Assembly: GCA_009838965.1 (NCBI GenBank)
Contig: VXQP01000044.1
Span: 2,882 to 66,881, forward strand
Source: Chloroflexota bacterium
GTDB lineage: Bacteria > Chloroflexota > Dehalococcoidia > Lucifugimonadales > Australimonadaceae
DNA length: 64,000 nt
Direction of reading: 5' to 3'
In this document: positions 45,073-61,990 of the stretch, piece after piece
Numbering within the stretch: position 1 is the first letter of the stretch
Layout: the number at the start of each line of letters is the position of its first letter
The notes under the pieces: generated by a model
Databases searched by the model: none
Told to the model about the DNA's origin: nothing
Seen by the model: only the letters and a program-made list of their open reading frames with translations
Position numbers and translations under genes: made by a program

Positions 45073-45190
45073 CCGTCATTCCCGCACCGGCGGGAATCCA
45101 GGGTGCGCGGGCAGCGCACACGGGGCGTGGAGGCGGGTGGAGTATTGTCATGCTGAGCGAAGCGCAGCGGAGTCGAAGTATCTCTCAGGG
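45073..45190 (+). repeat. Repeat cluster R2: modules A + B
   Basis: A = cgtcattcccgcaccggcgggaatccagggtgcgcgggcagcgcac, two tandem hairpins. B = tgtcatgctgagcgaagcgcagcggagtcgaagtatctctcagggg. Near-identical composite at 50081-50197. Confidence 0.85.
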
Positions 45191-45245
45191 GACGTACGCT
45201 TGTTAGACCACCCCACGGAAGCGGACGACCGGCGCGAGGGGCCTC

Positions 45246-46088
45246 GTGATCGTTGACTTCCATACGCACCTGCTGCCCGCCTCTTTCAACGAGCGGCGCT
45301 CGGGGATAGCCGCGCGCGACGCCACGTTCGCTGCGCTCTTCGGCTCGGGCGGCAGGATGGCCACCGCGGAAGACCTGATTGCGGCGATGGACGAGAGCGG
45401 AGTCGACCTCTCCGTCGTGCTCGGCTTCGGCTGGTGCGACCGCGACGTCGCCCGCGAGGCGAACGACTGCCTGCTGGACGCCGCCGCGCGCTATCCGGGG
45501 CGTATCGCGGCGTTCTGCTCCGTGCATCCCGGCTGGGGGGATGACGCCCTGCGTGAGGTGGAGCGCTGCATCGACGCTGGAGCCGTCGGTATCGGCGAGC
45601 TGCATCCCACATCGCAGGAGATCGACCTTGCAACGGACGAGACGCTAGCGCCGCTGGCCCGCCTCGCGGCGGAGCGCGGCTTGCTCGTCACCGTTCACGG
45701 CTCGGAGCCGGTCGGCCACGCCTATCCCGGCAAGGGCTCGACGACGCCGGAGCGGCTGCTCGGGGCGGCGCAGCGGTTCCCGGACGTGCGCTGGGTGTTC
45801 GCCCACTGGGGCGGCGGGCTTCCGTTCTATGCGCTCATGCCCGAGGTGCGCGCCGCGCTCGCCAACACCTGGTTCGACAGCGCGGTGTCGCCGTTCCTCT
45901 ACGACGCCGAGGTGTTCGACGTTGCGATACGTGCCGTGGGCGCGGAGCACGTCCTGTTCGGCTCGGACTACCCCCTGCTGCGTGCGTCCCGAGTGGCGGA
46001 CCAGGCGCGCAGCACGCTCGATGCCGCGGCGGCACGGGCGGTGCTCGGCGGCAACGCCGTGCGGTTGCTGGGGCTCGCCGATGACTGA
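45246..46088 (+). CDS. Amidohydrolase-2 family metal-dependent hydrolase
   Basis: 280 aa. MIVDFHTHLLP metal-binding HxH, TIM-barrel hydrolase pattern, FGSDYP near the C-terminus. Confidence 0.8.
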   Translation: MIVDFHTHLLPASFNERRSGIAARDATFAALFGSGGRMATAEDLIAAMDESGVDLSVVLGFGWCDRDVAREANDCLLDAAARYPGRIAAFCSVHPGWGDDALREVERCIDAGAVGIGELHPTSQEIDLATDETLAPLARLAAERGLLVTVHGSEPVGHAYPGKGSTTPERLLGAAQRFPDVRWVFAHWGGGLPFYALMPEVRAALANTWFDSAVSPFLYDAEVFDVAIRAVGAEHVLFGSDYPLLRASRVADQARSTLDAAAARAVLGGNAVRLLGLADD

Positions 46089-46641
46089 CGCGCCGACGCT
46101 GCCCGACTACCTGCGGCCCGGCCTCGACCTCGTGTTCGTCGGCATCAACCCCGGAGCGTACTCGGCGTCCGTGGGCAAGTACTTCGCGACGCCGCAGAAC
46201 CGGTTCTGGGCCGCGCTCAACCGCTCCGGCCTGACCGGCGGGCGCGAATGCGGCCCCGGCGACGAGGAATGGCTGTTCGAGCATCGCGCCATCGGCTTTA
46301 CGGACGTGGTCAAGCGCGCAAGCAACAGCGCATCGAGCCTTCGCGCCGCTGACTTCCGCGCGTGGGCGCCGCTGACGCGCGAGAAGCTGCTGGCCGCGTC
46401 GCCGCTCGTCGTCTGCTTCAACGGCATCACCGGCTACAAGTGGTTCCTGCAGTACGCGGAGAGCCGGAAACAGGACGACGTCGCGCTCGGCGAGCAGCAG
46501 GATCGGCTGGGTGCGAGCCGCGTGTTCGTCGCGCCGAACCCGAGCCCGGCGAACGCGTCGTACTCGCTGGACGACATCGCGGGCTGGTACCGCCGCCTCG
46601 GCGAGCTGATCGCCCGCGCCAGGGCAGGGCGGGATGGCTGA
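46081..46641 (+). CDS. mug: G/U mismatch-specific uracil DNA glycosylase
   Basis: 186 aa, the last part of track ORF 45829..46641. VFVGINPG...YFATPQNRFW is the Mug/TDG active-site signature. 8-nt overlap with the upstream gene. Confidence 0.85.
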   Translation: MTDAPTLPDYLRPGLDLVFVGINPGAYSASVGKYFATPQNRFWAALNRSGLTGGRECGPGDEEWLFEHRAIGFTDVVKRASNSASSLRAADFRAWAPLTREKLLAASPLVVCFNGITGYKWFLQYAESRKQDDVALGEQQDRLGASRVFVAPNPSPANASYSLDDIAGWYRRLGELIARARAGRDG

Positions 46642-47236
46642 GGATGCCCCGGCGCGACGGGAGCGCAACCTGCGTCTGTTCGTTGCACTCGCCTTCCCGG
46701 ACGAGGTCCGCACCGAGTTGCGGCGCGTCGCAGGCGAGATGCGGACGTTCACGCCGCACGGCACACGATGGGCGAACGTGGACGGCGTGCACCTGACGCT
46801 GCGGTTCATCGGCAGCACTCCACCCGACGCTGCCCCGGTGCTCGGCGAGGCGGTTGCCCGCGCTGCCGAGGGCATCGCGCCATTTGAATTGTCGCTGGCG
46901 GGTGCAGGCGTCTTTCCGCCGCGCGGCGCACCCCGGGTGCTCTGGGTGGGCGTCGGGGGCGCGGTCGACGCACTGACCGGCCTGCGCGACCGCGTCGAGG
47001 ACGCGCTTGCTGAGGCTGGCGTCCCGAGCGACGACCGCGCATTCTCGCCGCACGTCACGCTCGCGCGGGTCAACACGAGGCTGTCGCGGGACGAGTCGCA
47101 GGCCCTGCGCGAGTCCGCCGCGGCGCTGGACGTTCGCCCCGTGCCCTTCACGGTCGAGGAGGTCGGCCTCTACCACAGCGACCTGCTCCCCACCGGTGCG
47201 GTCTACACCCGCCTGGTGGTTGGTCCCCTCTCCTGA
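46634..47236 (+). CDS. thpR: RNA 2',3'-cyclic phosphodiesterase (2H phosphoesterase, ThpR/LigT)
   Basis: 200 aa. Two HxT motifs (HLTLRF, HVTLAR) in the 2H-superfamily spacing. The last codons and stop lie inside repeat module C. Confidence 0.85.
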   Translation: MAEDAPARRERNLRLFVALAFPDEVRTELRRVAGEMRTFTPHGTRWANVDGVHLTLRFIGSTPPDAAPVLGEAVARAAEGIAPFELSLAGAGVFPPRGAPRVLWVGVGGAVDALTGLRDRVEDALAEAGVPSDDRAFSPHVTLARVNTRLSRDESQALRESAAALDVRPVPFTVEEVGLYHSDLLPTGAVYTRLVVGPLS

Positions 47237-47340
47237 GGGAGAGTGCAACGCGCTTCAGTGCGTGGGTGAGGGCCCTCGGAGGGCGAGGGGTGGGTGCCTG
47301 ATTCCTTCCCCCTTGATGGGGGAAGGTGAGGATGGGGGAG
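47225..47340 (+). repeat. Repeat cluster R3: modules C + D
   Basis: C = cccctctcctgagggagag..cgcgcttcag.gcgtgggtgagggccc. D = ttccttcccccttgatgggggaaggtgaggatggggg. Confidence 0.85.
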
Positions 47341-47452
47341 ATTGGCGACAAGTCGAAATTGTGACACCGGCTGGTTTCGCAGTTGACGACATTGCGGTAA
47401 CCTAATCCCAACAACCGAAGTTCGCCGGAACGGAACGTATGCACGGGGACGA

Positions 47453-47485
47453 GCCCCGGCCTTGAGAAAGGGCCGGGGCTTTTTC
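47453..47485 (+). terminator. Rho-independent terminator
   Basis: GCCCCGGCC-ttgagaaag-GGCCGGGGC (9-bp GC stem) followed by TTTTT. It lies 217 nt after the thpR stop and 43 nt before the protease ATG. Confidence 0.6.
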
Positions 47486-47528
47486 GTGTTCGGGTACCGC
47501 GTCGGCGGGCGCATGAGGAGGCGCAGAG

Positions 47529-48218
47529 ATGGTGTCGTACGAGGTGAGCACAGGGGTGAGCGAGCGCGAACGTTGGGAGCGGGAGCGGCTGCTGGAGTCG
47601 TTGGAGGCGTACCGGCGGGGACTGGCTGACGCGCCGGTCGTCCAGAGGTTCTCGATGTGCCGCGCCGTCGCGCCCAACGAGGACCGCCCGCTGACCGTCG
47701 TGGCGTCGGACGAGTCGGCCGACCGTCTGGGCGACGTGGTGCGCGCTGGCGGCTGGGACTTGGACGCGTACAAGCACAACCCCGTTTTCCTGTGGGCGCA
47801 CGACTACACCCGTACGCCCATCGGTCGCAGTTCATGGGTAGGCGTGGATGGCTCGAAGCTGCTGGCGACGGTGGAGTTCGCCCCCACTGCATTCGCGCAG
47901 GAGGTGGAGCTGCTCTACCGGCAGCGGTTCTTACGCGCTGTAAGCGTCGGCTTCCGCGCCAGGGAATTCTCGTTCCGCAAGGGCCGCGACGGCTCGGTGG
48001 ACGGCGTCGAGTACACGAGGCAGGAGCTGCTGGAGCTGAGCGCAGTGCCCGTGCCCGCGAACCCGCACGCGCTGGCGAAGGCGCTCGAAGGCGGGCTCGA
48101 GACGCCGCGGCTGCGTCCGCTGTTCACGTTCGACCTTCCCGCGTCGTGCATCGCGCCGGAGGACGCCCAGCGCGTCCTCAGCGAACTCCGCCGCCTGCGC
48201 GGCCTCGTGTCCGCATGA
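47529..48218 (+). CDS. HK97-family phage prohead (capsid maturation) serine protease, S78/U35-like
   Basis: 229 aa. NPVFLWAHDYTRTPIG (catalytic His context), FLRAVSVGF (Ser context), ELLELSAVPVPANPHA, all typical of the HK97 gp4 family. SD GAGGAGG. Confidence 0.85.
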   Translation: MVSYEVSTGVSERERWERERLLESLEAYRRGLADAPVVQRFSMCRAVAPNEDRPLTVVASDESADRLGDVVRAGGWDLDAYKHNPVFLWAHDYTRTPIGRSSWVGVDGSKLLATVEFAPTAFAQEVELLYRQRFLRAVSVGFRAREFSFRKGRDGSVDGVEYTRQELLELSAVPVPANPHALAKALEGGLETPRLRPLFTFDLPASCIAPEDAQRVLSELRRLRGLVSA

Positions 48219-48220
48219 AG

Positions 48221-48405
48221 CCCGTCGTTCCTGCGGAGGCACGCGCTTTAGCGCGCAACCTCGCAGCCCATCCCCGTCATTCCCGCGAAGGCGGGAATCC
48301 AGAGGTGCGGGACAGCGGAGCGCACACGGGCGGTGTGGCGTCCCTTGTCCCCGCTCCCCTCGCCCTCTGGGAGAGGGAAACGCGCGTCAGCGCGAGGGTG
48401 AGGGT
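48221..48405 (+). repeat. Repeat cluster R4: modules E-variant + A + G + C
   Basis: The segment cccgtcgttcctgcggaggcacgcgctttagcgcgcaacctcgcagccca is almost identical to 53775-53822. It is followed by an A module (cgtcattcccgcgaaggcgggaatccag...) and a C module (...ctgggagagggaaacgcgcgtcagcgcgagggtgaggg). Confidence 0.85.
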
Positions 48406-48450
48406 TGACAACAAAAAACGGCCCATCGCGGCCGGGAAAGGAGGAGAGCG

Positions 48451-48699
48451 ATGCGGATAGCACAGGTGGTGCGCGTGGCGTTGCAGGCGGCGCGGCTGGT
48501 GGATGTCCTCTGCCGGGTTGCGCCGGATGCCGCCGAGGCGCTGGAGAGCGGAGCGCGGTTGATGCGTGAGTCGGCCCGCGCCGCGCCGGACGGACTGACC
48601 CGCACGGAGCGGGACACGCTGGCGTCGTCGGCGCGCAGGTTCGGCGAGGCGCTCGCGGAAGCGATCGAGGCCGCGCCGGTGAACGAACGGGAGAACTGA
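48451..48699 (+). CDS. Hypothetical small Ala/Arg/Glu-rich helical protein between protease and capsid genes
   Basis: 82-aa ORF with strong SD AAAGGAGGAGAG, nearly identical to the SD before ATG 48719. The stop lies 19 nt before that ATG. The high-GC composition makes a shadow ORF possible. Confidence 0.5.
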   Translation: MRIAQVVRVALQAARLVDVLCRVAPDAAEALESGARLMRESARAAPDGLTRTERDTLASSARRFGEALAEAIEAAPVNEREN

Positions 48700-48768
48700 T
48701 CACACAGAAGGAGGAGAGATGTCTGCGATAGACGAGATGCAGAAGGAGATAGTGGAGACGCGGAGTTC

Positions 48769-50043
48769 GTGCGCGAGCGGCTCGGCCCCGTGACCAGGGA
48801 GCTGACCCTCATGCGCGAGGAGCAGGAGCGGCTCGCGGGCGAGGTGCGCTCCGTGCTGGAGCACGACCGCTCGACGCGGCGTGACGCGCTGCTGGGCCGG
48901 ACCTCGAACGACCGCGTCCGCGTGCGCGGTGGGAAGCTCGACGGCTTCGACCTCGTGGACCTCGCCGTGATGCGGAGCCTGCTCGCGGCGCAGCAGGCCC
49001 GCCCGCAGGACTACGACCCGCGAGCGCTCCGCGCGTGGCAGGAGAGCGTCGCCAGGGCGATGGACTCCACGACCGCGGGCGCGGGCGACGAGTTGGTCCC
49101 GCAGGAGGAGGCCCGCCAGCTCTGGGCGGACGTGAACCTCGAGACGGCGGTCGCGTCGCTTTTCGAGACGGTCACGATGCCGTCCAACCCGTTCGACGTG
49201 CCCCTGCAGCTGGGCGACGTCAACTGGTACCCCGGCACGGCGAACACGGCCACGACCGCCACGGACCTGAAGACCGCCAAGCAGACGCTGACAGCGTACG
49301 AGCTCGTCGGCATGGTGCCGTGGGCGTACGAGTTGGACGAGGACGCCGTCGTCGCGATGATGGCCGAGGTGCGCGGCACGCTGATCCGCAACGCGGCGCA
49401 GGTGCTGGACGACGTGCTCCTGAACGCCGACGTGTCCACGACGGGCAACATCAACCACGACGGCGAGAGTCTCACCGCCTCCGCGGCGGGCAAGGCGCAC
49501 TACCTGGTGGGGTTCGACGGCCTCCTGCACCTGCCGCTGATCGACAACGCGGCGATGCGGAACAACTTCAACGCGAAGCCCACCGTCGACATGTGCAATC
49601 AGCTCCGGCGGATGCTGGGCAAGTACGGCGTGCGCCCGTCCGAACTGGCGTTCATCACGGACGTGGGCACGTACATCGCCATGCAGGCGGTGGAGAGCTT
49701 CCAGACACTGGACAAGCTCGGCCCGCGCGCGACGCTCCTCACCGGGCAGTTGGGTGCGGTCGAGGGCGTCCCCGTCATCGTGTCGGAGCAGCTCCGCCTC
49801 GCCGACTCGGACGGCAAGGTCACGTCGGACGGCAACGTCGCGGACACCGGCCGTCTGCTGCTGGTGAACCGCACGCAGTGGCGCAAGGGCTTCAAGCGCG
49901 AGTTGCTCATCGAGACCGAGCGCGACGTCCAGAAGCGCCAGAACGTCATGGTGGTCAGCATGCGCGTGGCCTTCGCGGAACGCTCCGGCGACCGCGCCAA
50001 CGCGACCCACACCGCGCTGCAGTACAACGTGAAGCACTCGTAG
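48769..50043 (+). CDS. HK97-fold phage major capsid protein
   Basis: 424 aa. N-terminal coiled-coil (delta-domain-like) region, then LVPQEEARQLWADVNLETAVASLFETVTMPSNPFDVP...LTAYELVGMVPWAYELDEDAV...VLDDVLLNAD, typical of the Phage_capsid (HK97 gp5) family. The start is ambiguous: GTG 48769, or ATG 48719 in the adjacent frame (see findings). Confidence 0.88.
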   Translation: MRERLGPVTRELTLMREEQERLAGEVRSVLEHDRSTRRDALLGRTSNDRVRVRGGKLDGFDLVDLAVMRSLLAAQQARPQDYDPRALRAWQESVARAMDSTTAGAGDELVPQEEARQLWADVNLETAVASLFETVTMPSNPFDVPLQLGDVNWYPGTANTATTATDLKTAKQTLTAYELVGMVPWAYELDEDAVVAMMAEVRGTLIRNAAQVLDDVLLNADVSTTGNINHDGESLTASAAGKAHYLVGFDGLLHLPLIDNAAMRNNFNAKPTVDMCNQLRRMLGKYGVRPSELAFITDVGTYIAMQAVESFQTLDKLGPRATLLTGQLGAVEGVPVIVSEQLRLADSDGKVTSDGNVADTGRLLLVNRTQWRKGFKRELLIETERDVQKRQNVMVVSMRVAFAERSGDRANATHTALQYNVKHS

Positions 50044-50057
50044 CCGCATCGTGGTGA

Positions 50058-50197
50058 CCTGCCGGTGCGGGAATAGCGTTCGTCATTCCCGCACCGGCGG
50101 GAATCCAGGGTGCGCGGGCAGCGCACGCGGTGGGGAAGATGTGTGGGGTTGTCATGTTGAGCGGAGCCGGAGGCAGAGTCGAAACATCTCTCGGGGG
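50058..50197 (+). repeat. Repeat cluster R5: modules A (with extra inverted arm) + B
   Basis: The 46-nt stretch cgtcattcccgcaccggcgggaatccagggtgcgcgggcagcgcac is identical to 45076-45121. B variant = ttgtcatgttgagcggagccggaggcagagtcgaaacatctctcggggg. Confidence 0.85.
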
Positions 50198-50215
50198 TCT
50201 GCACGCATCGCGTCC

Positions 50216-51049
50216 CTATCGCCCTACCACCTCCGGTTCGCTGAATGCGAGCCGCTCTGCCATGACGCGCACCGCCTCAGGGTTGCTGTCGATGAGGAGG
50301 TAGCGCCTGCCGTTGCGCGCCGCGGACTCCCCGGTCGTCCCCGACCCCGCGAAGAAGTCCATCACGAGGTCGCCGGGGTCGGAGTGCACCCGCACGATGC
50401 GGTTGAGGATGGCGATGGGCTTCTGCGTCGGGTAGCCGGTGCGCTCGCGCCCGACCGTTGGAACGATGGTCTGCCACCACACGTCTGTGGGCGTCTTCCC
50501 GCGTGCGGCTTTCTCGGCTCCCGCGAGCCCCGGAGCCATGTACGGTACGCGGTCGATCTCGTCGTAGTGGAACGTGTACCGCGCGGGGTCCTTCGCATAC
50601 CAGAGGAGCGTGTCGTGCTTCGCGGGCCAGCGGGACTTCGGCCTCCCGCCGTAGTCGTATGCCCAGATGATCTCGTTCATGAAGCAGTCGCGCCCGAACA
50701 GCGCGTCGAGCAGCACCTTGCAGTAGTGTGCCTCCCGGTAGTCGATGTGCAGGAAGAACGAACCCGTTGGCGAGAGGATGCGGTGCGCCTCCACGAGTCG
50801 TGGCTCGAGGAACGCGAGGAAGTCGTCGAAGATGTCGTCGAACGACTGCGCGCCGAGCCGCACCGTCCGGTAGCGCCTGCCCTGGAACCCCGTGCGGTCG
50901 CCGTGCTCGTCGTCGCGCATCGTGCGCACACGCTCGCGGCGTTGCTCCTTCCCCGTGTTGAAGGGCGGGTCGATGTAGATGAGCGCCGCCGCGCCGTCCT
51001 CGATGGCCGGCAGCACGTCCATGTTGTCGGCGAGCACGATGCGGTTCAC
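50216..51049 (-). CDS. Beta-class DNA methyltransferase (N6-adenine or N4-cytosine), orphan
   Basis: IYIDPPFNTG (motif IV) precedes DFFAGSGTTG (motif I), the permuted order of beta-class amino-MTases. Start set at GTG 51049, because the first 13 codons of the track ORF (to 51088) are repeat module E read in reverse. Confidence 0.85.
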   Translation of the reverse strand: MNRIVLADNMDVLPAIEDGAAALIYIDPPFNTGKEQRRERVRTMRDDEHGDRTGFQGRRYRTVRLGAQSFDDIFDDFLAFLEPRLVEAHRILSPTGSFFLHIDYREAHYCKVLLDALFGRDCFMNEIIWAYDYGGRPKSRWPAKHDTLLWYAKDPARYTFHYDEIDRVPYMAPGLAGAEKAARGKTPTDVWWQTIVPTVGRERTGYPTQKPIAILNRIVRVHSDPGDLVMDFFAGSGTTGESAARNGRRYLLIDSNPEAVRVMAERLAFSEPEVVGR

Positions 51050-51054
51050 GTCAA

Positions 51055-51153
51055 CCTCGTCGTTCCTGCGGAGGCAGGAACCGCGCAACCTGTGCGCTTG
51101 TTTCGCTCATGGTGAGCCTGCGCTTGTTCGCTCATGGTGAGCCTGTCGAACCA
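51055..51153 (+). repeat. Repeat cluster R6: module E + tandemly duplicated module F
   Basis: E = cgtcgttcctgcggaggcaggaacc. F = gcgcttgtt(t)cgctcatggtgagcct twice in tandem (51093-51118, 51119-51143), then gtcgaaccac. Confidence 0.8.
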
Positions 51154-51169
51154 CGCGGCGCTTTCCACC

Positions 51170-51883
51170 TCAGCCTCCCACCAGCGACCGCACGTGCGCG
51201 GCTGCTTCCGTTAGCGATGCCACTACGCGTACGCCGTTGGGTGGGGGTGGCCCCGGCTCACGCTGCACGAGCACGGCCTCGATCCCCGCGCTCCGCGCGC
51301 CCTCCACGTCCGCCGGGATGCTGTCGCCGATATGCACAGCCTCAGCGGGCTGTGCCCTCGCCTGCGCAAGCGCCAGTTGGAAGATGCGTGGGTGCGGCTT
51401 GCTCACCCCTGCGGTGGCAGTGCAGGAGCGCACGGGAAGATACCCGGCGATGCCGAGCCGTTCGAGCAGCCCGTTGAGTTCGAGCCCCATGTTGGAGATG
51501 ACGCCCAGCGTCAGCCCCAGCGAACGCAGGTCGGCGAGTGCCGCTTCTGCGTCGGGGAGAAGCGTCAGCTCGTCCGGCGCACTGCGCACGCGCTGCCAGA
51601 CGCGCGCTGCGACGTCGAGGCTCACGCCCGCCGCGCCCGCGTCTGTCAGCAGCCGGCGCTCGTACTCCGCGAAGAAGGCGTCGCGCTCCGGTTGCGTCCG
51701 CTGCTGCACAGGGCGTTTGGCGTTCTCCTCGTCCATATAGGCGTTCGCCGTGCGGTAGCCCGCGGCGATCGCGGCTTGCTCGATAGCGATGCCCTCCGCG
51801 GCCGCGGCCGCCTGCTGCAGGCTTTCCGCCGTCGGCCAGTCCGCGAGCGTGCCGTAGAAATCGAAAAAGACTGCCCGTATCAT
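51170..51883 (-). CDS. HAD-superfamily hydrolase
   Basis: 237 aa. MIRAVFFDFYGTL (DxD-type motif I variant), ISN (motif II), GDS..D (motif IV). Confidence 0.85.
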   Translation of the reverse strand: MIRAVFFDFYGTLADWPTAESLQQAAAAAEGIAIEQAAIAAGYRTANAYMDEENAKRPVQQRTQPERDAFFAEYERRLLTDAGAAGVSLDVAARVWQRVRSAPDELTLLPDAEAALADLRSLGLTLGVISNMGLELNGLLERLGIAGYLPVRSCTATAGVSKPHPRIFQLALAQARAQPAEAVHIGDSIPADVEGARSAGIEAVLVQREPGPPPPNGVRVVASLTEAAAHVRSLVGG

Positions 51884-51902
51884 GCGGCCAGCCTACCACC
51901 TT

Positions 51903-51945
51903 TGCTCCCCTCTCCCCCTTGGGAGAGGGGCTGGGGGTGAGGGTT
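51903..51945 (+). repeat. Repeat cluster R7: module C-prime
   Basis: tgctcccctctcccccttgggagaggggctgggggtgaggg. Same family as 58483-58525 and 53822-53845. Confidence 0.75.
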
Positions 51946-51948
51946 TCC

Positions 51949-52593: not shown

Positions 52594-52600
52594 CGCAAAC

Positions 52601-54461: not shown

Positions 54462-55754
54462 ATGCTGAGTGCACTGGATAACGAACGGTTGGCCCGCATC
54501 GGTCCCGGAACGGAGATGGGCGCGCTGATGCGCCGCTACTGGATCCCCTTCCTGCTGACGGAAGATATCCCCGAAGCCGACGGCGACCCCGTCCGCGTCA
54601 CCCTGCTGGGTGAGCGGCTCGTCGCGTTCAGGAACAGCGTCGGGCAGGTCGGACTGGTGGACCGCCTCTGCGCGCACCGCAACGCAGACCTCTTCTTCGG
54701 GCGCAACGAGGAGAACGGCATCCGCTGCACCTACCACGGCTGGAAGTACGACGTCGACGGCAAGTGCACGGACATGCCGTCCGAGGCGTCGGACAGCAAC
54801 TTCAGGGACAAGATTCAGCTGAGGGCGTACCCCGTCAGGGAGCGCGGCGGCGTCCTCTGGACGTACATGGGTCCGAAGGAGCACATGCAGCCGATGCCGG
54901 AGTTCGAGTGGACGCGGGTGCCGGACGGCCACCGCTACGTCTCCTGGAACTTCCAGGAGAACAACTACGCGCAGGCCATCGAGGGCGGCATCGACACCGT
55001 GCACTCGGTCTACCTGCACAGCGCCATGGACTCCCACCGCCGTCTCAACGACTGGCAGGAGGCGGGCAGGGACAGCGGCGACGTGACCAAGATGTACCGC
55101 ACGCGTGTGAACCCGCCCAAGCTGCGCGCGCTCGAGACCGACTTCGGCCTCATCATCGGCGGGCGGTACCCCGGCGACGAGACGCAGGACTACTGGCGCT
55201 TCAACCTCTTCTGGATGCCGTTCTACACCGCCCCTCCCGGCGGCGGCGAGGGGAAGATGATGCACGCGTTCGTCCCCGTCGACGACGTCACCACAGCCCG
55301 CTGGTGCTTCACGTGGAGCACCACCGGCAAGCCGCTCTCCGCGAGGCACATCGCCGACCTCCGCAAGGGGCAGGGCGTCCACGCGCAGACCATCCCCGGC
55401 AGCCACTGGCCGGTGCGCAACATGCGCAACGACTACCTCATCGACCGCGAGGAGCAGCGTCATCTCACGTTCACGGGCATCAAGGGCACCGGCGAGCAGG
55501 ACTTCTCCGTGCAGGAAGGCATGGGGCAGATATCCGACCGCACGCGCGAGCACCTGGGCGTCACGGACATCGGCATCATCGCGATGCGGCGGATGCTTCT
55601 GCACTCGGCCGCGGCCATCCGGGAAGGGGCCGAACCGACCTCGGCGCGCAGCCCTGACGCCTACCGCGTCCGCCCCGGCCAGACGATGATTCCGACCGAC
55701 GCGGACTGGACGACGCACGACAACCTCAAGGAGGCCATCGCCGCCACCTACTGA
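54462..55754 (+). CDS. Rieske [2Fe-2S] aromatic ring-hydroxylating oxygenase, alpha subunit (phthalate-family/VanA-like)
   Basis: 430 aa from Met94 of the track ORF (SD GAGGGAGG). Rieske motif CAHRNADLFFG...CTYHGWKY and a downstream mononuclear-iron region (NYAQAIEGGIDTVHSVYLH). Confidence 0.88.
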   Translation: MLSALDNERLARIGPGTEMGALMRRYWIPFLLTEDIPEADGDPVRVTLLGERLVAFRNSVGQVGLVDRLCAHRNADLFFGRNEENGIRCTYHGWKYDVDGKCTDMPSEASDSNFRDKIQLRAYPVRERGGVLWTYMGPKEHMQPMPEFEWTRVPDGHRYVSWNFQENNYAQAIEGGIDTVHSVYLHSAMDSHRRLNDWQEAGRDSGDVTKMYRTRVNPPKLRALETDFGLIIGGRYPGDETQDYWRFNLFWMPFYTAPPGGGEGKMMHAFVPVDDVTTARWCFTWSTTGKPLSARHIADLRKGQGVHAQTIPGSHWPVRNMRNDYLIDREEQRHLTFTGIKGTGEQDFSVQEGMGQISDRTREHLGVTDIGIIAMRRMLLHSAAAIREGAEPTSARSPDAYRVRPGQTMIPTDADWTTHDNLKEAIAATY

Positions 55755-55757
55755 GCC

Positions 55758-55835
55758 TCCTCTCTCCTGAGGGAGAGGGAAACGCGCTTCAGCGCGCGGG
55801 TGAGGGCCCTCGGCGGGACTGAGGAGCGCGGGGGT
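55758..55835 (+). repeat. Repeat cluster R10: module C
   Basis: ctcctctctcctgagggagagggaaacgcgcttcagcgcgcgggtgagggccctcgg, between convergent genes. Confidence 0.85.
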
Positions 55836-55846
55836 GCCTGCTGCCC

Positions 55847-56788
55847 TCACTGTCCGAAGTGCGGCATGACCTCCGCGGCGAACCGCTCGTAGGTCGGCAG
55901 CAGCGACTCCGGCGCGCACAGGGCGTTCATGGTGAAGTGCGTCACGCCCGCGTCCGCGAACGCTTCGAGCGTCTCGATGCAGTCCGCCGGCGTGCCGAGC
56001 GGCAGCGTCGCCGGGTGTATCTCCCAGGCGTCCTCGCCGAAGCGATGCCGCATCGCGGCCTGCACCTCCCGGTAGGCGTCGTCCTTCGTCTGCCCCATGC
56101 AGAGGTACATGTTGCACGACCACTCGAACGCCGCCGGGTCGCGTCCGTACGCGGCTGCCATCTCCTCGATGGCGGCCTTGCCCTCGGCGTAGCCCTTCGG
56201 CGTCATGCCGTTGGGGTGGAATCCGTCCGCCCAGCGCGCCGTCCGCTCCAGCGTATGCCGGGTGAACCTGCCGTCCCACATCGCCCCGGTCCATAGGGGC
56301 AGATGCGGCTGCTGAACGGATCGCGGCTCCAGCGTCACGTGCTCCATGTCGTGGAACGTCCCGTGATGCGTCACGTCCGTCTCGGAGAGCAGCCTGCGCA
56401 CGAGCGCGAACCGCTCGTCCGTGATGCCGCGCCGGTCCTCCACGCGCACGCCCTCGACGGCGAAGTCGCCGTTGTAGACGCCGCCGGACCCCAGCCCCAG
56501 CACCATTCGCCCTCCCGACAGCACGTCGATCGAGGTCGCGATCTTCGCGATCTGGTACGGGGTGTGGAACGGCAGCACGGCGACGCCGGTTCCCAGGCGC
56601 ATGTGCGTCGTGCGCTGTGCGACGGACGCAAGCAGGATGAAGGAGTCGAGCGTCGGGAGCGTCTCGAGCTCCGGAACGAAGTAGGAGCGGTACCCCAGCG
56701 CCTCCGTCTGCTCGGCGAAATCGAGCGGGCCGATGACGCTTGCCATCGAGGCCCCGTTGTACTGGACGCCGAATACCGGCAAGGGCAA
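55847..56788 (-). CDS. LLM-class F420/flavin-dependent oxidoreductase
   Basis: 313 aa. AEQTEALGYRSYFVPE...RTTHMRLGTGVAVLPFHTP...GGRMVLGLGSGG luciferase-like pattern. Abuts the upstream stop. Confidence 0.85.
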   Translation of the reverse strand: MPLPVFGVQYNGASMASVIGPLDFAEQTEALGYRSYFVPELETLPTLDSFILLASVAQRTTHMRLGTGVAVLPFHTPYQIAKIATSIDVLSGGRMVLGLGSGGVYNGDFAVEGVRVEDRRGITDERFALVRRLLSETDVTHHGTFHDMEHVTLEPRSVQQPHLPLWTGAMWDGRFTRHTLERTARWADGFHPNGMTPKGYAEGKAAIEEMAAAYGRDPAAFEWSCNMYLCMGQTKDDAYREVQAAMRHRFGEDAWEIHPATLPLGTPADCIETLEAFADAGVTHFTMNALCAPESLLPTYERFAAEVMPHFGQ

Positions 56789-57319
56789 CTACCCGCCGGT
56801 TGCTTCGAGCGCGTAGGGGATCAGTTCAGCACCCCGCGCCCGCTTCTCGCTGCGGATGATGATGGCGGCGCTGCGCTCTCCGATCGTGATCTCCTGGTGC
56901 GCCAGGTGCGGCGGCACCACGTCCACGTCGCCGGGCTCGATGCGGAAGGTGCTGTCGTGGACGACTTCGTCGCGTTCGCGGTGGAAGCGGTTGATATCCT
57001 CGGCCCCCTGCACCAGCCCGTACATCGTCCAGATCTCACCATGGTCATGGACGGTCGTGTGGTGCCCGGCTTCCTTGGCCATCGCGGTGACGAGGAATCC
57101 GTAGTCCGGGTCCTCGTAGAAGAGCAGGTTGCCGGTGCGATCGCGCCCTGTGCTCGTCCGGTCGGTCGCGGGCCAGTTCTTCGCGTGCTCCTGCACCTCC
57201 GGGTCGGAAGCGAAGTCGCGCAGGAGTGCTCCCGTCTTCGTCCAGCGCTCCTCGTCGCTCATCTCCCGGGCGCAGAGCGCGCGGACCTCGCTTACGAATC
57301 TCTCCGCTGCTTCCAGCAT
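56789..57319 (-). CDS. Cupin, cysteine-dioxygenase-type-I-like
   Basis: 176 aa. Single cupin barrel with TTVHDHGEIW ... PPHLAHQE metal-ligand-like motifs. The family assignment is tentative. Confidence 0.65.
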   Translation of the reverse strand: MLEAAERFVSEVRALCAREMSDEERWTKTGALLRDFASDPEVQEHAKNWPATDRTSTGRDRTGNLLFYEDPDYGFLVTAMAKEAGHHTTVHDHGEIWTMYGLVQGAEDINRFHRERDEVVHDSTFRIEPGDVDVVPPHLAHQEITIGERSAAIIIRSEKRARGAELIPYALEATGG

Positions 57320-57338
57320 CGCTCTCCTCCTCCGGCCT

Positions 57339-58436
57339 CTACAGGCCGTACAGCGCTCGGGGGTTGTCGTACAGGATCTTGGCTTTCGCCTCGTCGCTCA
57401 CGTCGTCCATCTCCAAGAACGCCTTGATGGCGTCCATCGCGCTGGAGGTGTCCGTGTGGCCGTAGTCCGTGCCTATCAGGATGTTGTCCTCACCGCCGTG
57501 CTTCAGCACGAACGGAACATCGTCGGATATCTCGCAGGTGACGTAGACGTTGAAGTGCTTGAGGACGTTCTCGGGCGGCGCGCCGAGATTGCGTGCGATG
57601 AACCGCTGCTTCACCTCGCGCACGACCCAGGGCACCCAGTTTGCCGATGCCTCGACGAACCCCCACCGGAGCGTCGGGAAGCGCTCTGGCACCGCGCTCG
57701 TCATGATGACGCCGCACTCCATGACCGTCGGGATGCGGAACGGCGTGAAACCGCCGCTCCGGTCGAACGGCGACCGCAGCGTTTGGATCATCGCGTTACT
57801 GCCGTTGGAGATGTGTATGGCCACCGCCAGGTTGAGCTTCTCGGCCTCTGCGTAGAGGGGGTAGAAGTACGGGTCGACCACCGTCTTCCCGAGTTCCATG
57901 GGCCGCAGGGCGATGGCGACCGCGCCGTGCTCCTTCACGTACCTGATCTGCTCGACGGCGGCCTCGATGTCGAGCGTTGGCATCACCGCGCACCAGCGCA
58001 GGCGTCCCCTTGCCTGTTGCCACACGTCGGCCATCCAGCGGTTCCAACTGCCGCATAGGGCGACGTCGGCTTCCGGCACGTCCGTCACCGGCTCTATCCA
58101 CATCGTGTTGTGGAGCACCTGGATGTCGATGCCCAGCTCGTCCATGTGGCGGAGCCGGGTGGAGACGTCGGACAGTTCACGCGAGTCCTGGGTGGAGACG
58201 AGGTCGCGCCCCACCTGTGCGGAGAGCTTCCGCAGGTGCTCTTCCGTCGGCGTTGCGTTGCGGTGGCCCCGCACCTTCCCGCCGATGACCCAGTGCCCCT
58301 GGTTGGGGTTGTCGGGATTGATGAAGAGCGTTGGCCGGAACCGCTCCTCGTGGGGGAGGAGATAGTCCCACGTGTGCTCGGACTCGATGACGTGGGCGTC
58401 GCTGTCGATGACCCTGGTCTTCGCAACGGTTGCCAT
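57339..58436 (-). CDS. Amidohydrolase-2 family protein (ACMSD/decarboxylase-hydratase-like)
   Basis: 365 aa. VIDSDAHVIE metal motif, ...HISNG..., GTDYGHTD near the C-terminus. Confidence 0.85.
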   Translation of the reverse strand: MATVAKTRVIDSDAHVIESEHTWDYLLPHEERFRPTLFINPDNPNQGHWVIGGKVRGHRNATPTEEHLRKLSAQVGRDLVSTQDSRELSDVSTRLRHMDELGIDIQVLHNTMWIEPVTDVPEADVALCGSWNRWMADVWQQARGRLRWCAVMPTLDIEAAVEQIRYVKEHGAVAIALRPMELGKTVVDPYFYPLYAEAEKLNLAVAIHISNGSNAMIQTLRSPFDRSGGFTPFRIPTVMECGVIMTSAVPERFPTLRWGFVEASANWVPWVVREVKQRFIARNLGAPPENVLKHFNVYVTCEISDDVPFVLKHGGEDNILIGTDYGHTDTSSAMDAIKAFLEMDDVSDEAKAKILYDNPRALYGL

Positions 58437-58482
58437 CAGCGCCTCCTTTCACCAGGCGGGCGGACGCGCGCATCGTATCTCT

Positions 58483-58592
58483 GCTCCCCTCTCCCTTCAA
58501 GGGGAGAGGGCGAAGGTGAGGATACTGCGGGGGCCTGGGGGCCACCTCGCCCCCTGGGAGAGGTCGACGCGCTTGCGCGGCGGGTGAGGGTG
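58483..58592 (+). repeat. Repeat cluster R11: modules C-prime + C
   Basis: gctcccctctcccttcaaggggagagggcgaaggtgagg and cgccccctgggagaggtcgacgcgcttgcgcggcgggtgaggg. Confidence 0.8.
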
Positions 58593-58596
58593 TCCC

Positions 58597-59850
58597 CTAC
58601 ATGCGGCTCTGCCACCCCGCGCGGGCGAACGGCAGCGTGAACATGACCACCACCAGTGCCGCCGCGCTGATCGCCGCGATGTACCAGAACAGCGACTCGA
58701 ATCCCCAGGTGGCCACGACGACGCCGACCAGCAGCGGCCCGATGCCCGTGAAGATGAAGTTCGCTCCGTCCAGCACGCCCAGCGTCGACCCTTCCAGCCT
58801 GCGCCCGTGAGCGATGTCCAACGCCCACGTCTGCACCAGCGGGTTGACCACGAAGTTAAACGCCCCCATCACCGCAACGAGCAGCGTGAACATGGCGCCT
58901 GCTCCGGAGAGCGCGAGGAGTACGGCTATCGCCACCTTGGCGGTCAGCGCGATGACGATGACGGGCATGCGCCCGATGCGGTCCGACAGGTACCCGAAAG
59001 CGGGGTTGGTGATGGTGCCCATGGCCGTCAGCAGGGCGAGGTGGAACCCGATGCCGATCTCGCTCATGCCCAACTGTTCCGACAGGTACAGCGGTAGCCA
59101 CAGGAAGAGGCCGCCCTGCCCGAACCCTGCGACCGCCTTGATCAGGATGAGCAGGGTGAGGATCCGGCTGTTCTCCTTGAAGAGACCCTTGATTTCGCGC
59201 AGTTGCGCGCCGATCGGACGGGACTCACCCCTCGAACGCGCACCGACGTTCTGGAACGCCTCCGAGCGGCGGAGGAGCGTCCAGAGGAAGAACATGAAGA
59301 TGAGTGCGAGCGGGAACGCCGCGAGGAATATCTGCTGCCAGAGCAGGTACGCCAGGAGGAACCCCGCCAGGAGCGGGCCGGCGCTGTCGCCTATCGACCC
59401 GGCCGAGCGGTCGACCGTGATCATGAACCCCCTGCGTCGCGGGTATATCTGGGAAAGGAGCCCGCGCGCGGTGGGGTGCCATATCGACCCGGCTATCGAG
59501 GCGACCATCAAGGCCCCGAGTATGAGCACGTAGGTCGGCGCGGCGCCCACCAGGAAGTACCCCAGCCCCATTGCGGTAAGGCTCAGGTACAGGATCAGGA
59601 GACGCCGGTGCTGCAGCCGGTCCACCAGGAAACCGCCCACCGTCGAGGAGACTCCGCTGCCCACCTGCCGTACGGTCCCGACGAGGCCCGCCGTTATCGG
59701 GTTGAGCCCCAACGCTGCGTAGATGGTTGGAAGTATCACCCAGAATGCGTGTCCGTACAGGTGCTGCAGCGTGTGGCTGGTGATGATGGCGCCTGCCGCC
59801 ACGTGGTCGCGTACCTCGGGCTCGGTGGAGACTTGGGTTGCCGTGGCCAT
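58597..59850 (-). CDS. MFS transporter
   Basis: About 417 aa, 12 predicted TM, MFS loop motif (DRLQHRRLL). Start at Met20 of the track ORF (SD GGGAGGGG). Confidence 0.85.
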   Translation of the reverse strand: MATATQVSTEPEVRDHVAAGAIITSHTLQHLYGHAFWVILPTIYAALGLNPITAGLVGTVRQVGSGVSSTVGGFLVDRLQHRRLLILYLSLTAMGLGYFLVGAAPTYVLILGALMVASIAGSIWHPTARGLLSQIYPRRRGFMITVDRSAGSIGDSAGPLLAGFLLAYLLWQQIFLAAFPLALIFMFFLWTLLRRSEAFQNVGARSRGESRPIGAQLREIKGLFKENSRILTLLILIKAVAGFGQGGLFLWLPLYLSEQLGMSEIGIGFHLALLTAMGTITNPAFGYLSDRIGRMPVIVIALTAKVAIAVLLALSGAGAMFTLLVAVMGAFNFVVNPLVQTWALDIAHGRRLEGSTLGVLDGANFIFTGIGPLLVGVVVATWGFESLFWYIAAISAAALVVVMFTLPFARAGWQSRM

Positions 59851-59943
59851 CGTTCCCCTCCCGGTCTGACGTGGGGGACTGCGCTCTACTGATTGGCGAT
59901 TGTACAACCGTGAACGATTCGCTGCGGGCTCGGGGCGTGGGGC

Positions 59944-60139
59944 CTGTCATGCTGAGCGAAGCGTAGCGGAGTCGAAGCATCTCTCGGGTACGCGCTTGAG
60001 CGCGTGGGTGAGGGCCCTCGGTGGGGTTGTGGGGCATCCGTCGTTCCTGCGGAGGCAGGAACCTCGCACCTTGGGGGCGTGGCGCGGATGGGCGTCAGGT
60101 CCCTTCCCCCTTGACGGGGGAAGGTCAGGATGGGGGTGA
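59944..60139 (+). repeat. Repeat cluster R12: modules B + C(partial) + E + D
   Basis: ctgtcatgctgagcgaagcgtagcggagtcgaagcatctctcggg / cgcgcttgagcgcgtgggtgagggccctcgg / cgtcgttcctgcggaggcaggaacc / tcccttcccccttgacgggggaaggtcaggatgggggtgac. Confidence 0.85.
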
Positions 60140-60165
60140 CTGCCTCCTGTCGCGGAACGGGCGCG

Positions 60166-61431
60166 TCAACTCTGATACCGAACGATGTCGCGCACGAGCA
60201 GCAGTGCGATGACCAGCGTTGCGGCGCCGATGGCAGTGCCCACCAGCAGAGCGTTCGGTGCGAGCAGGGCTGCCGCCATCGCGCCGACGATGACCTGCCC
60301 CAGCGACGGCCCGCCACGGTTGGAGAGCTGCAGCACCGCCGTCGTGCGGCCTCGTATGTCGTCCGGGACCGCCATCTGCACGATGGTCGAGCGCATGATT
60401 GCGCCGATGCCGTCCGTGGCCCCCACCAGCGCAAGCGCCGCGAGGGAGAACAGGAAGTTGGTCGACAGCGCGAACATCGCCATGGAAACGAGATAGGCGG
60501 CATAGGAGCCCACCACCATCGCGCCCTTGTGTTTGAAGTCGCCGAGGAGGAGAAGCGCGCCGGAACCGACCAGGAAGCCTGCAGCCGGAGCGGAGAAGAG
60601 CAGTCCGTAGCCGAACGAGCCTGCATTCAGGATCTCCTCGAACACGGGCATGAGACCCCGGTGGTGCGTGAAGAACATCGCCACGACGTCCAGCAGCAGC
60701 ATCACGAGTATCGCGTGCGTGCTGAAGACGAAGCGGAACCCTGCAAGCATCGAACTCACGTCCATGCGCCGCCGTCCGGCTGAAGCGTCGGGCGGCATCG
60801 GGCTGACGAGGAACAGCGCGCCGACCGTGGGGATGAACACCACAAAGACCGCAGCGTACGTCCAGCCCGGCCCGACCAGGCCGATGAGCAGCCCGCCGAT
60901 GGCGGGGCCGATGAGCATGGAGGCGTGGCGCGCCGCCTGGTTCATGGTGATTGCGTTCATCATGTGGGTGCGCGGCACGAGACGGGGCAGCATCGCCATC
61001 CGCGCAGGCCCCTCGAACGTGTTCACTGCGGAAGTGACGAGCGTGGTCATGTAGATATGCCACACCTGGATGTTGTCCGTGAGAAAGAGCGTCGCAAGGA
61101 TGCCCGCGAGCGCGAAGTTGCCCGTCTGCGTGAGGATGAGCAGCGTCCTCCGGTCGACGATGTCGGCTATCGACCCGCCGATGAAAACGAGGATGAGCAT
61201 CGGGGCGAACTGGAAGATGCCGAGCAGGCCGAGGCTGAGCGTGGAACCGGTCAGTTCCCAGATCACCCACAGGTTGGTCACCTGCCGTATCTGGAAGCCC
61301 ATGAACCCGACGACGAAACTGACGAGCACCCACCGGAAGTTGGCGAAGGCGAGCGAGCCCCAGGGACTGACTCTTCCGGCGCTGGGCGCTGCTTCAGCGG
61401 TTTCTGTCCGTCGGTCCGGGGGTTCGGTCAC
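60166..61431 (-). CDS. MFS transporter (EntS/MFS_3-like)
   Basis: 12 TM. The pattern FANFRWVLVSFVVGFMGFQIRQV...GGSIADIVDRR resembles enterobactin-exporter-type MFS. The start is uncertain: GTG 61431 is used here, while the track ORF extends to 61491. Confidence 0.8.
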   Translation of the reverse strand: MTEPPDRRTETAEAAPSAGRVSPWGSLAFANFRWVLVSFVVGFMGFQIRQVTNLWVIWELTGSTLSLGLLGIFQFAPMLILVFIGGSIADIVDRRTLLILTQTGNFALAGILATLFLTDNIQVWHIYMTTLVTSAVNTFEGPARMAMLPRLVPRTHMMNAITMNQAARHASMLIGPAIGGLLIGLVGPGWTYAAVFVVFIPTVGALFLVSPMPPDASAGRRRMDVSSMLAGFRFVFSTHAILVMLLLDVVAMFFTHHRGLMPVFEEILNAGSFGYGLLFSAPAAGFLVGSGALLLLGDFKHKGAMVVGSYAAYLVSMAMFALSTNFLFSLAALALVGATDGIGAIMRSTIVQMAVPDDIRGRTTAVLQLSNRGGPSLGQVIVGAMAAALLAPNALLVGTAIGAATLVIALLLVRDIVRYQS

Positions 61432-61560
61432 GCACGCTCCTGCACGAGAGACGTCCGGTGTACTCCATCTGCCGCCGCCGCGTCGAACCACGTCCGGCAG
61501 GCGGGGAGCGTTCCTATGTTAAGGCCATGCGGCAGCCGCAACAACGCTGCCCCTTGGCAA

Positions 61561-61990
61561 CCCCGTCATGCAAGCATTTCCCTCCGTCTTTCCCGCGCAG
61601 GCGGGGATCCAGAGTGCGCGACAGCGGAGCGCACACGGTGGGTTAGTGGGGAGAGGTGTGTGGCCCCCTCTCCTGAGGGAGAGGGAAACGCGCTTCAGCG
61701 CGAGGGTGAGGGCCCTTGGTGGGGTTGGAAGCGGGGCGAGCGTGTCATGCCGGCCGCAGGCGGGAATCCAGAGTGCGCGACAGCGGAGCGTACACGGTAG
61801 GGTAATGGGGAGAGGTGTGTGGCCCCTCTCCTGAGGGAGAGGGAAACGCGCGTCAGCGCGAGGGTGAGGGCCCCCGGGGCGGGGTGATGGAGGGGACTGT
61901 CATTCCGAGCGGAGCGCAGCGAAGTCGAGGTATCTCTCAGGGGCATTATCCCTTCCCCCTCGACGAGGGAAGGTTAGGATGGGGGTGATG
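61561..61990 (+). repeat. Repeat cluster R13: about 430-bp composite array A-C-A-C-B-D
   Basis: Two tandem A+C units with a period of about 159 nt (61586-61716 and 61743-61875). They are followed by a B module (ctgtcattccgagcggagcgcagcgaagtcgaggtatctctcagggg) and a D module (tcccttccccctcgacgagggaaggttaggatgggggtga). Confidence 0.85.

Follow-up and report, generated by a model that had tools for sequence, protein, structure and literature searches.

Co-oriented mosaics of hairpin repeats and local strand skew in the genome of a Chloroflexota bacterium

A stretch of 64,000 nucleotides from the draft genome of a Chloroflexota bacterium, called the window here (positions 2882-66881 of its contig, C52 in the analysis), carries arrays of short GC-rich hairpin modules in 12 gaps between its genes. 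The modules are shuffled from array to array, and they read in one direction along the DNA next to genes that are arranged +/+, -/-, convergently and divergently. The locus thus raises the question of what gives the modules their common polarity. The polarity is found to be a property of the DNA strand, and it follows the local strand skew, not the direction of the genes. The modules resemble repetitive extragenic palindromes (REPs) and the Neisseria intergenic mosaic elements (NIMEs). With a probability of about 0.55, they are non-autonomous DNA repeats of this kind that are propagated by a strand-specific process acting on single-stranded DNA, and not gene-control signals.

Polarity, gene direction and strand skew

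A direct-repeat search of the window from 44 to 64 kb recovered families A, B, C, D and E with 3-6 copies each, all in direct orientation. The window copies served to build profiles (hidden Markov models), which were run with nhmmer against the whole genome in three iterations, and gaps were defined between gene calls based on third-codon-position G+C (GC3). On the window's contig the profile search gives 28 non-overlapping modules, all on the + strand. The region 45,073-61,988 holds 27 profile-detected modules spread over 12 gaps, and the contig outside it holds one D at 33,586 and one A beyond the window. Three copies of a module called C-prime (51,908; 53,823; 58,487) were missed by the profiles and seen by pattern only; their inclusion brings the 12 gaps to about 30-31 modules, with the D at 33,586 in addition. 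Under random orientation, 13 co-oriented clusters would have p ~2e-4.

A preliminary description of the window had reported modular, shuffled intergenic repeats, and direct repeats of every family that it named, except one called 'F', were found where it had placed them. Its count of about 34 modules in 13 clusters is close, and its statement that the first 45 kb contain only one copy agrees with the profile search. The proposal of at least six families holds for A, B, C, C-prime, D and E, but 'F' turned out to be a tandem duplication at a single locus. Likewise, the claim of one polarity throughout is true of all profile-detected modules, but a partial inverted A arm at 50,045-50,074 means that the polarity of the window is not quite exceptionless.

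The draft genome (G000; 3.01 Mb, 106 contigs, 65.9% G+C, completeness 96.6%) contains 578 non-overlapping modules in 296 clusters by the profile search (A 92, B 102, C 148, D 79, E 129 and E2, a form of E, 28). The closest complete chromosome (G001; OZ220673.1; 2,917,805 bp), which has about 92% nucleotide identity to G000, contains 756 modules in 370 clusters. The spread is patchy, with 16-19 copies on 7-kb contigs and stretches of 40-90 kb that have none. The strand totals of G000 are about equal; orientation on individual contigs is extreme (28:0, 0:21, 19:0, 0:17, 0:16, 14:0) and is mixed on the larger contigs. The fraction of cluster pairs sharing orientation is 94% at less than 3 kb and drops with distance to 89% (3-10 kb), 71% (10-30 kb) and finally 47% (more than 30 kb). 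Just 18 of the 142 multi-module clusters of G000 have mixed orientation.

To compare modules with genes, clusters were normalised to the 'written strand', on which the modules read as described. In this frame 78 clusters of G000 lie between +/+ genes, 54 between -/- genes, 59 between convergent and 35 between divergent genes, and orientation is not correlated with the local gene-strand bias (r = 0.02). The mixed gene arrangement and the independence of polarity from transcription, both noted earlier for the window, are therefore confirmed, the latter genome-wide, and orientation does not simply track the upstream gene, an outcome that the preliminary description had named as one that would refute it.

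Selection at the RNA level, with the modules acting as terminators, mRNA stabilisers or small RNAs like the whalefall-1 motif, would account for the enrichment of convergent and depletion of divergent gaps, for modules placed right after stop codons and for the stability of the hairpins. Module C resembles a motif curated as RNA, and there is a slight excess of modules co-oriented with genes (78 vs 54 in G000; 330 vs 250 flanked genes in G001). Nevertheless, the modules are antisense in 54 tandem gaps, occur in 35 divergent ones, and vary from 3 to 30 copies per 21 kb among genomes with about 98% protein identity, and their polarity tracks the skew of the DNA strand, not genes. No window module was called terminator-like, and T-runs were not found in the modules. 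Terminator-like sites number 10, against 6.9 +/- 2.7 expected, and the two sites with clear T-runs (47451-47481 and 48434-48419) adjoin modules and are not within them. The earlier argument against selection purely as terminators is upheld, and RNA-level selection in general is very improbable.

Orientation is related to the composition of the DNA strand. In G000 it anticorrelates (r = -0.58, p = 1e-26) with the element-masked GC skew in the 20 kb around a cluster. The chromosome of G001 is divided into 65 orientation domains of 5-150 kb, with 57-64 orientation switches, and the written strand is the C>G strand in 33 of the 38 domains that have at least three clusters (r = -0.73); T is slightly above A on the same strand. 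The domain skew is the same in genes of either strand. Segmentation of G001 by strand-corrected GC3 skew, which used no element positions, gave 89 segments, with which 595 of 704 elements conform, and 83-85% of elements have C>G at synonymous sites on the written strand. Conformity in G001 is 86% for A, 74% for B, 85% for C, 87% for D, 69% for E and 93% for E2. The segments alternate in sign, range from 1 to 140 kb and sum to 1.47 Mb of positive and 1.40 Mb of negative skew, lying over a weak replichore-scale trend.

The same relationship is seen at a single locus across genomes. At the gene for an FAA hydrolase, which lies in the window, the orientation of the hairpins relative to the gene and the GC3 skew have a Spearman correlation of -0.81 over ten genomes, and two of these loci (L022 and L024) have both orientation and skew flipped. 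In the window itself the strand-balanced GC3 skew is +0.17 and +0.13 in the two element-free parts, 1-22 kb and 22-44.7 kb, and -0.005 in the element-rich part at 44.7-64 kb. The zone of shifted strand composition (44700..64000) is found in the masked all-site skew as well. An inversion with an end at the 45-kb boundary of this zone was considered; close relatives are collinear there, and the loci of distant relatives end before that flank.

A simple replichore rule is not supported. Along G001, cumulative skew increases over 0-1.1 Mb (region A), decreases up to 2.05 Mb (region B) and is irregular beyond (region C, to 2.92 Mb), and element-free DNA follows this replichore-scale baseline. The element orientations are, however, nearly balanced in each region (153:186, 92:66 and 115:144, respectively). 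Of the earlier suggestion that the modules spread by a strand-specific, single-strand DNA or replication-linked mechanism, the tie to a strand asymmetry of the type that exposure of single strands leaves is supported, and the replichore version is not. A dnaA-like gene is located at 2.376 Mb, away from the skew extremes, and the 16S gene (2.711 Mb) is unlinked to the 23S gene (2.517 Mb).

Close to clusters, the strand-balanced GC3 skew of G001 equals the baseline plus a term set by the orientation of the elements. In region A the baseline is +0.044, the skew near '-' clusters is +0.148 and that near '+' clusters is -0.062; the corresponding values are -0.064, +0.003 and -0.107 in region B and +0.005, +0.142 and -0.100 in region C. 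The skew is strongest within 500 bp of the elements, where it is -0.13 in the written frame, and fades over 2-4 kb; beyond 8 kb it is -0.03 in G001 and -0.007 in G000. The decay with distance holds even inside intervals of 3-8 kb between co-oriented clusters.

Substitution, turnover and mechanism

Strand asymmetry of substitution was measured on third-position differences between G000 genes and their G001 orthologues, taken in the written-strand frame with the two gene directions balanced. With distance from the elements, log2(C<->T / A<->G) falls from +0.42 (less than 500 bp) through +0.21 (0.5-2 kb) and +0.12 (2-5 kb) to -0.04 (more than 5 kb), and the A<->C / G<->T ratio has a like distance trend. 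All six classes defined by region and orientation have a positive transition ratio. In 'minority' patches, where the composition is nearly symmetric (skew -0.027), the ratio is 0.40 +/- 0.05, and its baselines far from elements are +0.175 and -0.042. The counts are unpolarised, so the mutation type in excess cannot be named. The strand asymmetry is thus centred on the elements, additive to the replichore baseline and ongoing since G000 and G001 separated.

These results have to be set against an explanation based on replication, in which modules would be inserted into the lagging-strand template, as IS200/IS605 elements are, later inversions would flip orientation and skew together, and the halo of skew around the elements would reflect hidden heterogeneity. 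The orientation of IS608 and ISDra2 is tied to the replication strand (PMC3333891, PMC6006769), which provides a precedent. In agreement with this explanation, orientation anticorrelates with a replication-type GC skew that is the same in both gene orientations, element-free DNA has a replichore-scale baseline, 'minority' domains are weaker in skew than 'majority' domains, as if relaxing, and the window block of about zero skew lies between flanks of +0.15. However, the near balance of orientations within each large skew region is not expected from it. Furthermore, near 'majority' clusters the skew of region A is roughly threefold its baseline (less than twofold in region B), an amplitude that inversion of baseline DNA could not produce, and the skew decays inside the short intervals mentioned above. 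'Minority' domains turn over at least as fast as the rest and yet stay pure, and the asymmetry of their recent substitutions in the element frame exceeds the baseline. No inversions between G000 and G001 were found over contigs up to 170 kb, nor was the Y1 transposase of such elements found. This explanation is the main rival but is unlikely.

The turnover of the arrays was followed in 215 occupied G000 gaps mapped to G001, which is collinear with the whole window and with G000 contigs up to 170 kb. The module string is identical in only 29 gaps, 68 gaps have no module in G001 and the remainder differ in content, whereas polarity agrees in 141 of the 147 gaps that are occupied in both. Among relatives with 97-98% protein identity at the window's locus, the number of modules over the same 21 kb is 3, 7, 24, 29 or 30, and in every case they are one-way; the counts in relatives include 30:0, 29:0, 24:0, 33:0 and 26:0. 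The module content of a gap therefore turns over fast while the polarity of the locus persists. The junctions between present and absent states often begin directly after a stop codon.

This turnover argues strongly against the modules being attC-like joints of an integron-like cassette array with mobile genes in between. Such an array would explain why co-oriented hairpin repeats separate unrelated one- or two-gene units of mixed function. The relatives, however, keep the full gene order while repeats come and go, the genes are on both strands, the repeats are chromosome-wide and an integrase was not seen beside the arrays; the idea is hardly credible.

The persistence of polarity could alternatively be a matter of inheritance. 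The gaps would have been colonised long ago, and the arrays would since have evolved in place (by duplication, deletion and NIME-style direct-register recombination between arrays) or by exchange of alleles between strains, leaving the link to skew a historical one. The arrays of syntenic gaps do differ in content and not in polarity, the orientation domains are conserved between G000 and G001, and local tandem duplications exist (a 159-nt unit in the window). Neisseria NIME arrays behave likewise (PMC1797815). The nearest sequence relatives of module copies are enriched 3-5 times within 20 kb. Nevertheless, only 8-14% of the nearest relatives of A, B, C and D copies are within 20 kb, and about 50% are on the same chromosome strand, so that most copies have their closest kin elsewhere and on either strand. 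Local copy-and-paste was rejected for the same reason as the cause of co-orientation and is a minor contributor. Inheritance also leaves unexplained the shared polarity of gaps that are kilobases apart, the element-centred skew and the recent asymmetric substitutions, and 68 of the 215 gaps are occupied in one genome only. Genes less than 500 bp from arrays are 92.3% identical between G000 and G001, compared to 91.6% beyond 5 kb; NIME-style recombination hot spots were rejected on this ground, and the absence of extra divergence counts against inheritance too. Inherited polarity is improbable as the full explanation.

The reading preferred here is that of a strand-specific process. The modules would be inserted, copied or retained by a process that acts on one particular strand while it is single-stranded. 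A recurrent strand-specific state around the arrays, such as nicking, gaps or an exposed complementary strand, would leave the local skew, and a single process that both orients the modules and biases mutation is favored. The causal arrow may point either way: the elements could make the asymmetry or could home to it. In a bolder and more tentative version, to which we give less credence than to the general reading, the arrays would be more than passengers of replication: each is a site of recurrent one-strand nicking or single-stranded DNA that imprints a mutation halo of about 2 kb on the genes around it and allows modules to spread to near and distant gaps in the same polarity. The halo would then be strand-asymmetric mutation that is independent of transcription and added to replication skew.

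The enzyme involved would be one other than a Y1/RAYT transposase or an IS110 recombinase. The preliminary description reported no RAYT-like gene in the window, which is correct, and none was found in the whole 96.6%-complete genome. Its assignment to the REP/RAYT or IS200/IS605 type is not supported, because the Y1 domain (PF01797) had no match in G000 or in nine of the ten relatives tested (G001-G005 and G007-G010). In a survey of 301 sampled Chloroflexota genomes Y1 occurs in 132, but was not found in the hairpin-rich groups f1, f5, f35/g54 and f28/g160 and gave weak matches only in the hairpin-rich groups f50/g79 and f65/g157. The IS110/Piv recombinase, considered by analogy with the Neisseria repeat dRS3, was rejected: PF01548 had no match in nine hairpin-bearing genomes (G000, G001, G002, G004, G005, G010, G011, G013 and G014) and is abundant in hairpin-poor ones. 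The genomes G006 and G009, with 19-30 IS110 copies, lack hairpin modules at the locus, but G003 and G012 carry both, so that this inverse relation is partial. Nine candidate REPtron-like genes flanked by inverted elements look ordinary as judged by eye, with no Pfam run: they include enzymes, LexA, GNAT, ribosomal protein S20 and one low-complexity, probably spurious open reading frame (ORF).

Several points weigh against the strand-specific process. No enzyme or mobilisation event was demonstrated in the analysis. The junctions are ragged, with no target duplication and no common or fixed target, and may stem from deletions as well as from insertions. The skew beside gaps that are empty in G001 is equal in both genomes; skew thus needs no element in that very gap. 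Isolated clusters have a weaker and broader halo, which also fits elements gathering where asymmetry is strong. The whole-genome analysis comprises two genomes, G000 and G001, and gains, losses and substitutions are unpolarised for want of an outgroup. The gene calls were made in the analysis from GC3 (75-77% coverage), and the origin and terminus of G001 are guesses from cumulative skew only.

If the elements cause the asymmetry, GC skew in such genomes is not simply a record of replication, and calls of origin and terminus, inference of inversions and quality checks of metagenome-assembled genomes (MAGs) would be affected. If the halo version in particular is true, much of the mosaic GC skew of these SAR202 chromosomes would be written by repeats and not by replication forks. 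A route to the missing enzyme would also open, through phylogenetic profiling against hairpin load combined with strand-specific mapping of nicks. If the elements only track a pre-existing asymmetry, they would still be a natural probe of the exposed strand along the chromosome of an uncultured bacterium.

Modules and neighbouring genes

The hairpins of module A have the form CGTC-ATTCCCGC-NNNN-GCGGGAAT-CCAG, with the core ATTCCC-N8-GGGAAT. Their stems are ATTCCCGC, ATTCCAGC or ATTCCTGC and their loops GAAG, GGAG, GCAG or ACCG. Each of the stem variants ATTCCCGC, ATTCCAGC, ATTCCTGC and GTTCCTGC has its matching right arm, which indicates that pairing is maintained by compensatory change. The tag of full hairpins is CGTC in 171 and TGTC in 7 of 178 in G001, and CGTC in 173 and TGTC in 12 of 185 in G000; the tail is CCAG in 101 of the 178 G001 hairpins. 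Orphan pieces with the tag and left arm outnumber orphan right arms by 92 to 5 and by 70 to 8 (about 10:1), an excess that is partly due to nested forms. E2 is an E that carries a nested small GCGC hairpin, and A hairpins with the same small hairpin inside the loop also occur, so that the modules are made up of still smaller hairpin units.

On the written strand, modules C and B form G.T pairs and fold with a lower dG. In module C, as aligned from the window and loci L001, L004 and L005, left-arm C-to-T changes keep G.T pairing on the written strand in 13 of 28 copies and would give A.C mismatches on the complement. For B and C, folding of the written strand is favored by about 1 kcal/mol. Selection through unequal stability of the hairpins on the two strands was rejected as the source of polarity, since the difference, at most about 1.2 kcal/mol, is too small. 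Support from covariation in module C is weak, because the alignment mixes subtypes and only two of ten pairs have double changes; the changes are mostly from C-G to U-G. G-quadruplex-type motifs (four runs of at least three G) in G001 clusters number 96 on the written strand and 15 on the complement, and those in clusters, both strands taken together, account for roughly one third of those in the whole chromosome. In yeast, the G-quadruplex-rich strand (the leading-strand template, by the usual reading of skew) is the more harmful, which speaks against purifying selection of this sort.

All the modules of the window are on the + strand. An isolated D, which is the only module in the first 45 kb, lies at 33586..33625 (an nhmmer profile match of 29 bits) and consists of a hairpin TCCTTTTCAC..GGGGAAAGG with a AGGATGGGGGTGA tail. 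The next two clusters were identified by repeat search, gap sequence and profile. The first, A-B at 45073..45189, has an A made of CGTC ATTCCCGC ACCG GCGGGAAT CCAG plus a GTGCGCG..CGCGCAC hairpin, and a B that is TGTC-tagged. The second, C-D at 47225..47341, has a C with two hairpins and a GGGTGAGGG tail, and a D like that at 33586; a separate, true terminator-like hairpin, the T-run site at 47451-47481, lies 3' of it.

Repeat search and profile together define most of the remaining clusters. The cluster E2-A-C at 48223..48405 begins with an E left arm that carries a nested GCGCTTTAGCGC hairpin. The cluster A-B at 50045..50195 is preceded by the partial inverted A arm, which comes right after the capsid stop codon. 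A single E at 51058..51082, CGTC GTTCCTGC GGAG GCAGGAAC C, overlaps the 5' end of the methylase ORF call, and a single C at 55759..55808 occupies a convergent gap. The cluster at 59945..60139, in a -/- gap, consists of B, the 3' half of a C, E and D. The array A-C-A-C-B-D at 61584..61988 lies in a divergent gap; its A-C unit is a tandem duplicate with a 159-nt period and 93% identity. The E2 at 53777, downstream of the FAA-hydrolase gene, is followed by a C-prime fragment (together 53777..53845) that was recognized by pattern.

Three further sites were identified in other ways. The C-prime at 51905..51945, which has the structure CTCCCCTCTCCCCC TTGG GAGAGGGG CTGGGGGTGAGGG, was read from the sequence by regular expression and lies in a divergent promoter gap. 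The cluster E-C-D at 52602..52779 was found by profile and Rfam search, and its C is the best whalefall-1 match (30.9 bits). The pair C-prime and C at 58485..58591 was found by profile and pattern in a -/- gap and is antisense to both flanking genes. The sequence formerly called 'F' (51093..51145, without strand) lies between the methylase and HAD genes; it is a 25-nt duplication of 2.1 copies with 96% match (Tandem Repeats Finder), and a genome search placed it at this one locus, which ruled it out as a repeat family.

The genes that flank the modules encode unrelated enzymes, transporters, a DNA methylase and an orphan HK97 protease-capsid pair, and are on both strands. The pair (47529-50043) comprises an HK97-type prohead protease gene (PF04586), an 82-aa ORF and a major capsid gene (PF05065). 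Other phage genes were not seen nearby, and the pair is kept beside the same neighbors in the more distant relatives L017, L019 and L020. The closest relatives of the FAA-hydrolase gene are in Dehalococcoidia/SAR202 MAGs, and several of these relatives are closed chromosomes. Some are presumably sponge-associated, judging from the style of the isolate names in their titles.

Hairpins with the CGTC tag are present in high copy number in several separate Chloroflexota lineages, but not in most (33 of 301 sampled genomes; about zero for a reversed-pattern control). Two genomes, G010 (OY282355.1; 1,135 hairpins) and G014, have more than 1,100 each, a load far above that of G000, and the locus L022 (16250-16850) belongs to the same observation. 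In G010 and G011 there are head-to-tail tandem arrays of CGTC hairpins with periods of about 39, 59 or 96 nt. The hairpins are very unequally distributed between the strands of closed chromosomes, with 48 forward vs 184 reverse exact matches in G011 (OX638292.1) and 67 vs 185 in G013; between 306 and 826 kb of G011 they are nearly all one-way.

Comparison with known repeat systems

CGTC-type REPs and NIMEs have, to our knowledge, been known for decades with no mobilising enzyme and no agreed function. We know of no report for either of three properties described here: a strict head-to-tail polarity, polarity domains that follow local strand skew and not genes or replichores, and an element-centred strand asymmetry of substitution that is still running. 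Modules A and E are CGTC-tagged REP palindromes. The superfamily has an unpaired tag, CGTC or else TGTC or CCTC, at one end of the palindrome. The CGTC-1 repeats have a CGTC or TGTC tag, an 8-bp stem starting with AT, a 4-nt loop and a CCA tail, and were equated with Neisseria dRS3 (PMC3733652, Di Nocera, De Gregorio and Rocco 2013). Module A has the same layout, with a tag that is sometimes TGTC and a CCA(G) tail, and is likewise extragenic and of high copy number; the family is without a known dedicated transposase, and none was found here. Module E departs from the pattern in that its stem begins with GT and its tail is CTCG. Unlike the published repeats, which mostly form head-to-head dimers with negligible head-to-tail pairs (PMC3733652), those described here are head-to-tail, co-oriented over kilobases and interleaved with unrelated hairpin modules. 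The host phylum, Chloroflexota, is not listed for CGTC repeats in that paper, nor is a polarity tied to local strand skew described in it.

The arrays are head-to-tail mosaics like those of Neisseria, with modules sometimes nested. In NIMEs, arrays of dRS3 (ATTCCC-N8-GGGAAT) have other repeat families in between, occupy syntenic positions, vary between strains and are said not to occur outside Neisseria (PMC1797815, Bentley et al. 2007). The core of module A is identical to dRS3, and the mosaic arrays in syntenic gaps also differ in content between close genomes, with orders such as A-C-A-C-B-D and E2-A-C. The arrays are, however, shorter (1-9 modules), the partner modules are themselves hairpins and the genes next to arrays are not more diverged. 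Neither an IS110-type recombinase nor a filamentous phage is found here, and the description of NIMEs contains no polarity rule.

The likeness to REP, BIME and REPIN sequences is that of short GC-rich extragenic hairpins with a 5' tetranucleotide tag, and the likeness to IS200/IS605 elements is a strand-specific behavior of the kind expected from processing of single-stranded DNA. The tag is nevertheless CGTC and not GTAG, inverted doublets are absent, and a Y1 gene is found neither here nor in most hairpin-rich relatives. Orientation follows local skew domains and not replichores. PATE-type elements derived from IS200/IS605 would insert 3' of a fixed tetranucleotide with no target duplication, mobilised by a Y1 TnpA; the junctions here have neither a duplication nor a fixed target, and there is no Y1 gene.

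Module C resembles the whalefall-1 motif (RF01762), of which it may be a relative below threshold: it has the CUCUCC-loop-GGAGAG hairpin, a second GC hairpin and a GGGUGAGG tail. Its four matches score 19-31 bits, the best being 30.9, whereas the gathering score is 37. The motif had been known only from whale-fall metagenomes (PMC2864571, Weinberg et al. 2010). Module C is dispersed and lies in either sense relative to genes, which calls into question a stand-alone small-RNA reading for this relative of whalefall-1, and suggests that the orphan 'whalefall-1 RNA' is a member or a derivative of a dispersed family of DNA repeats.

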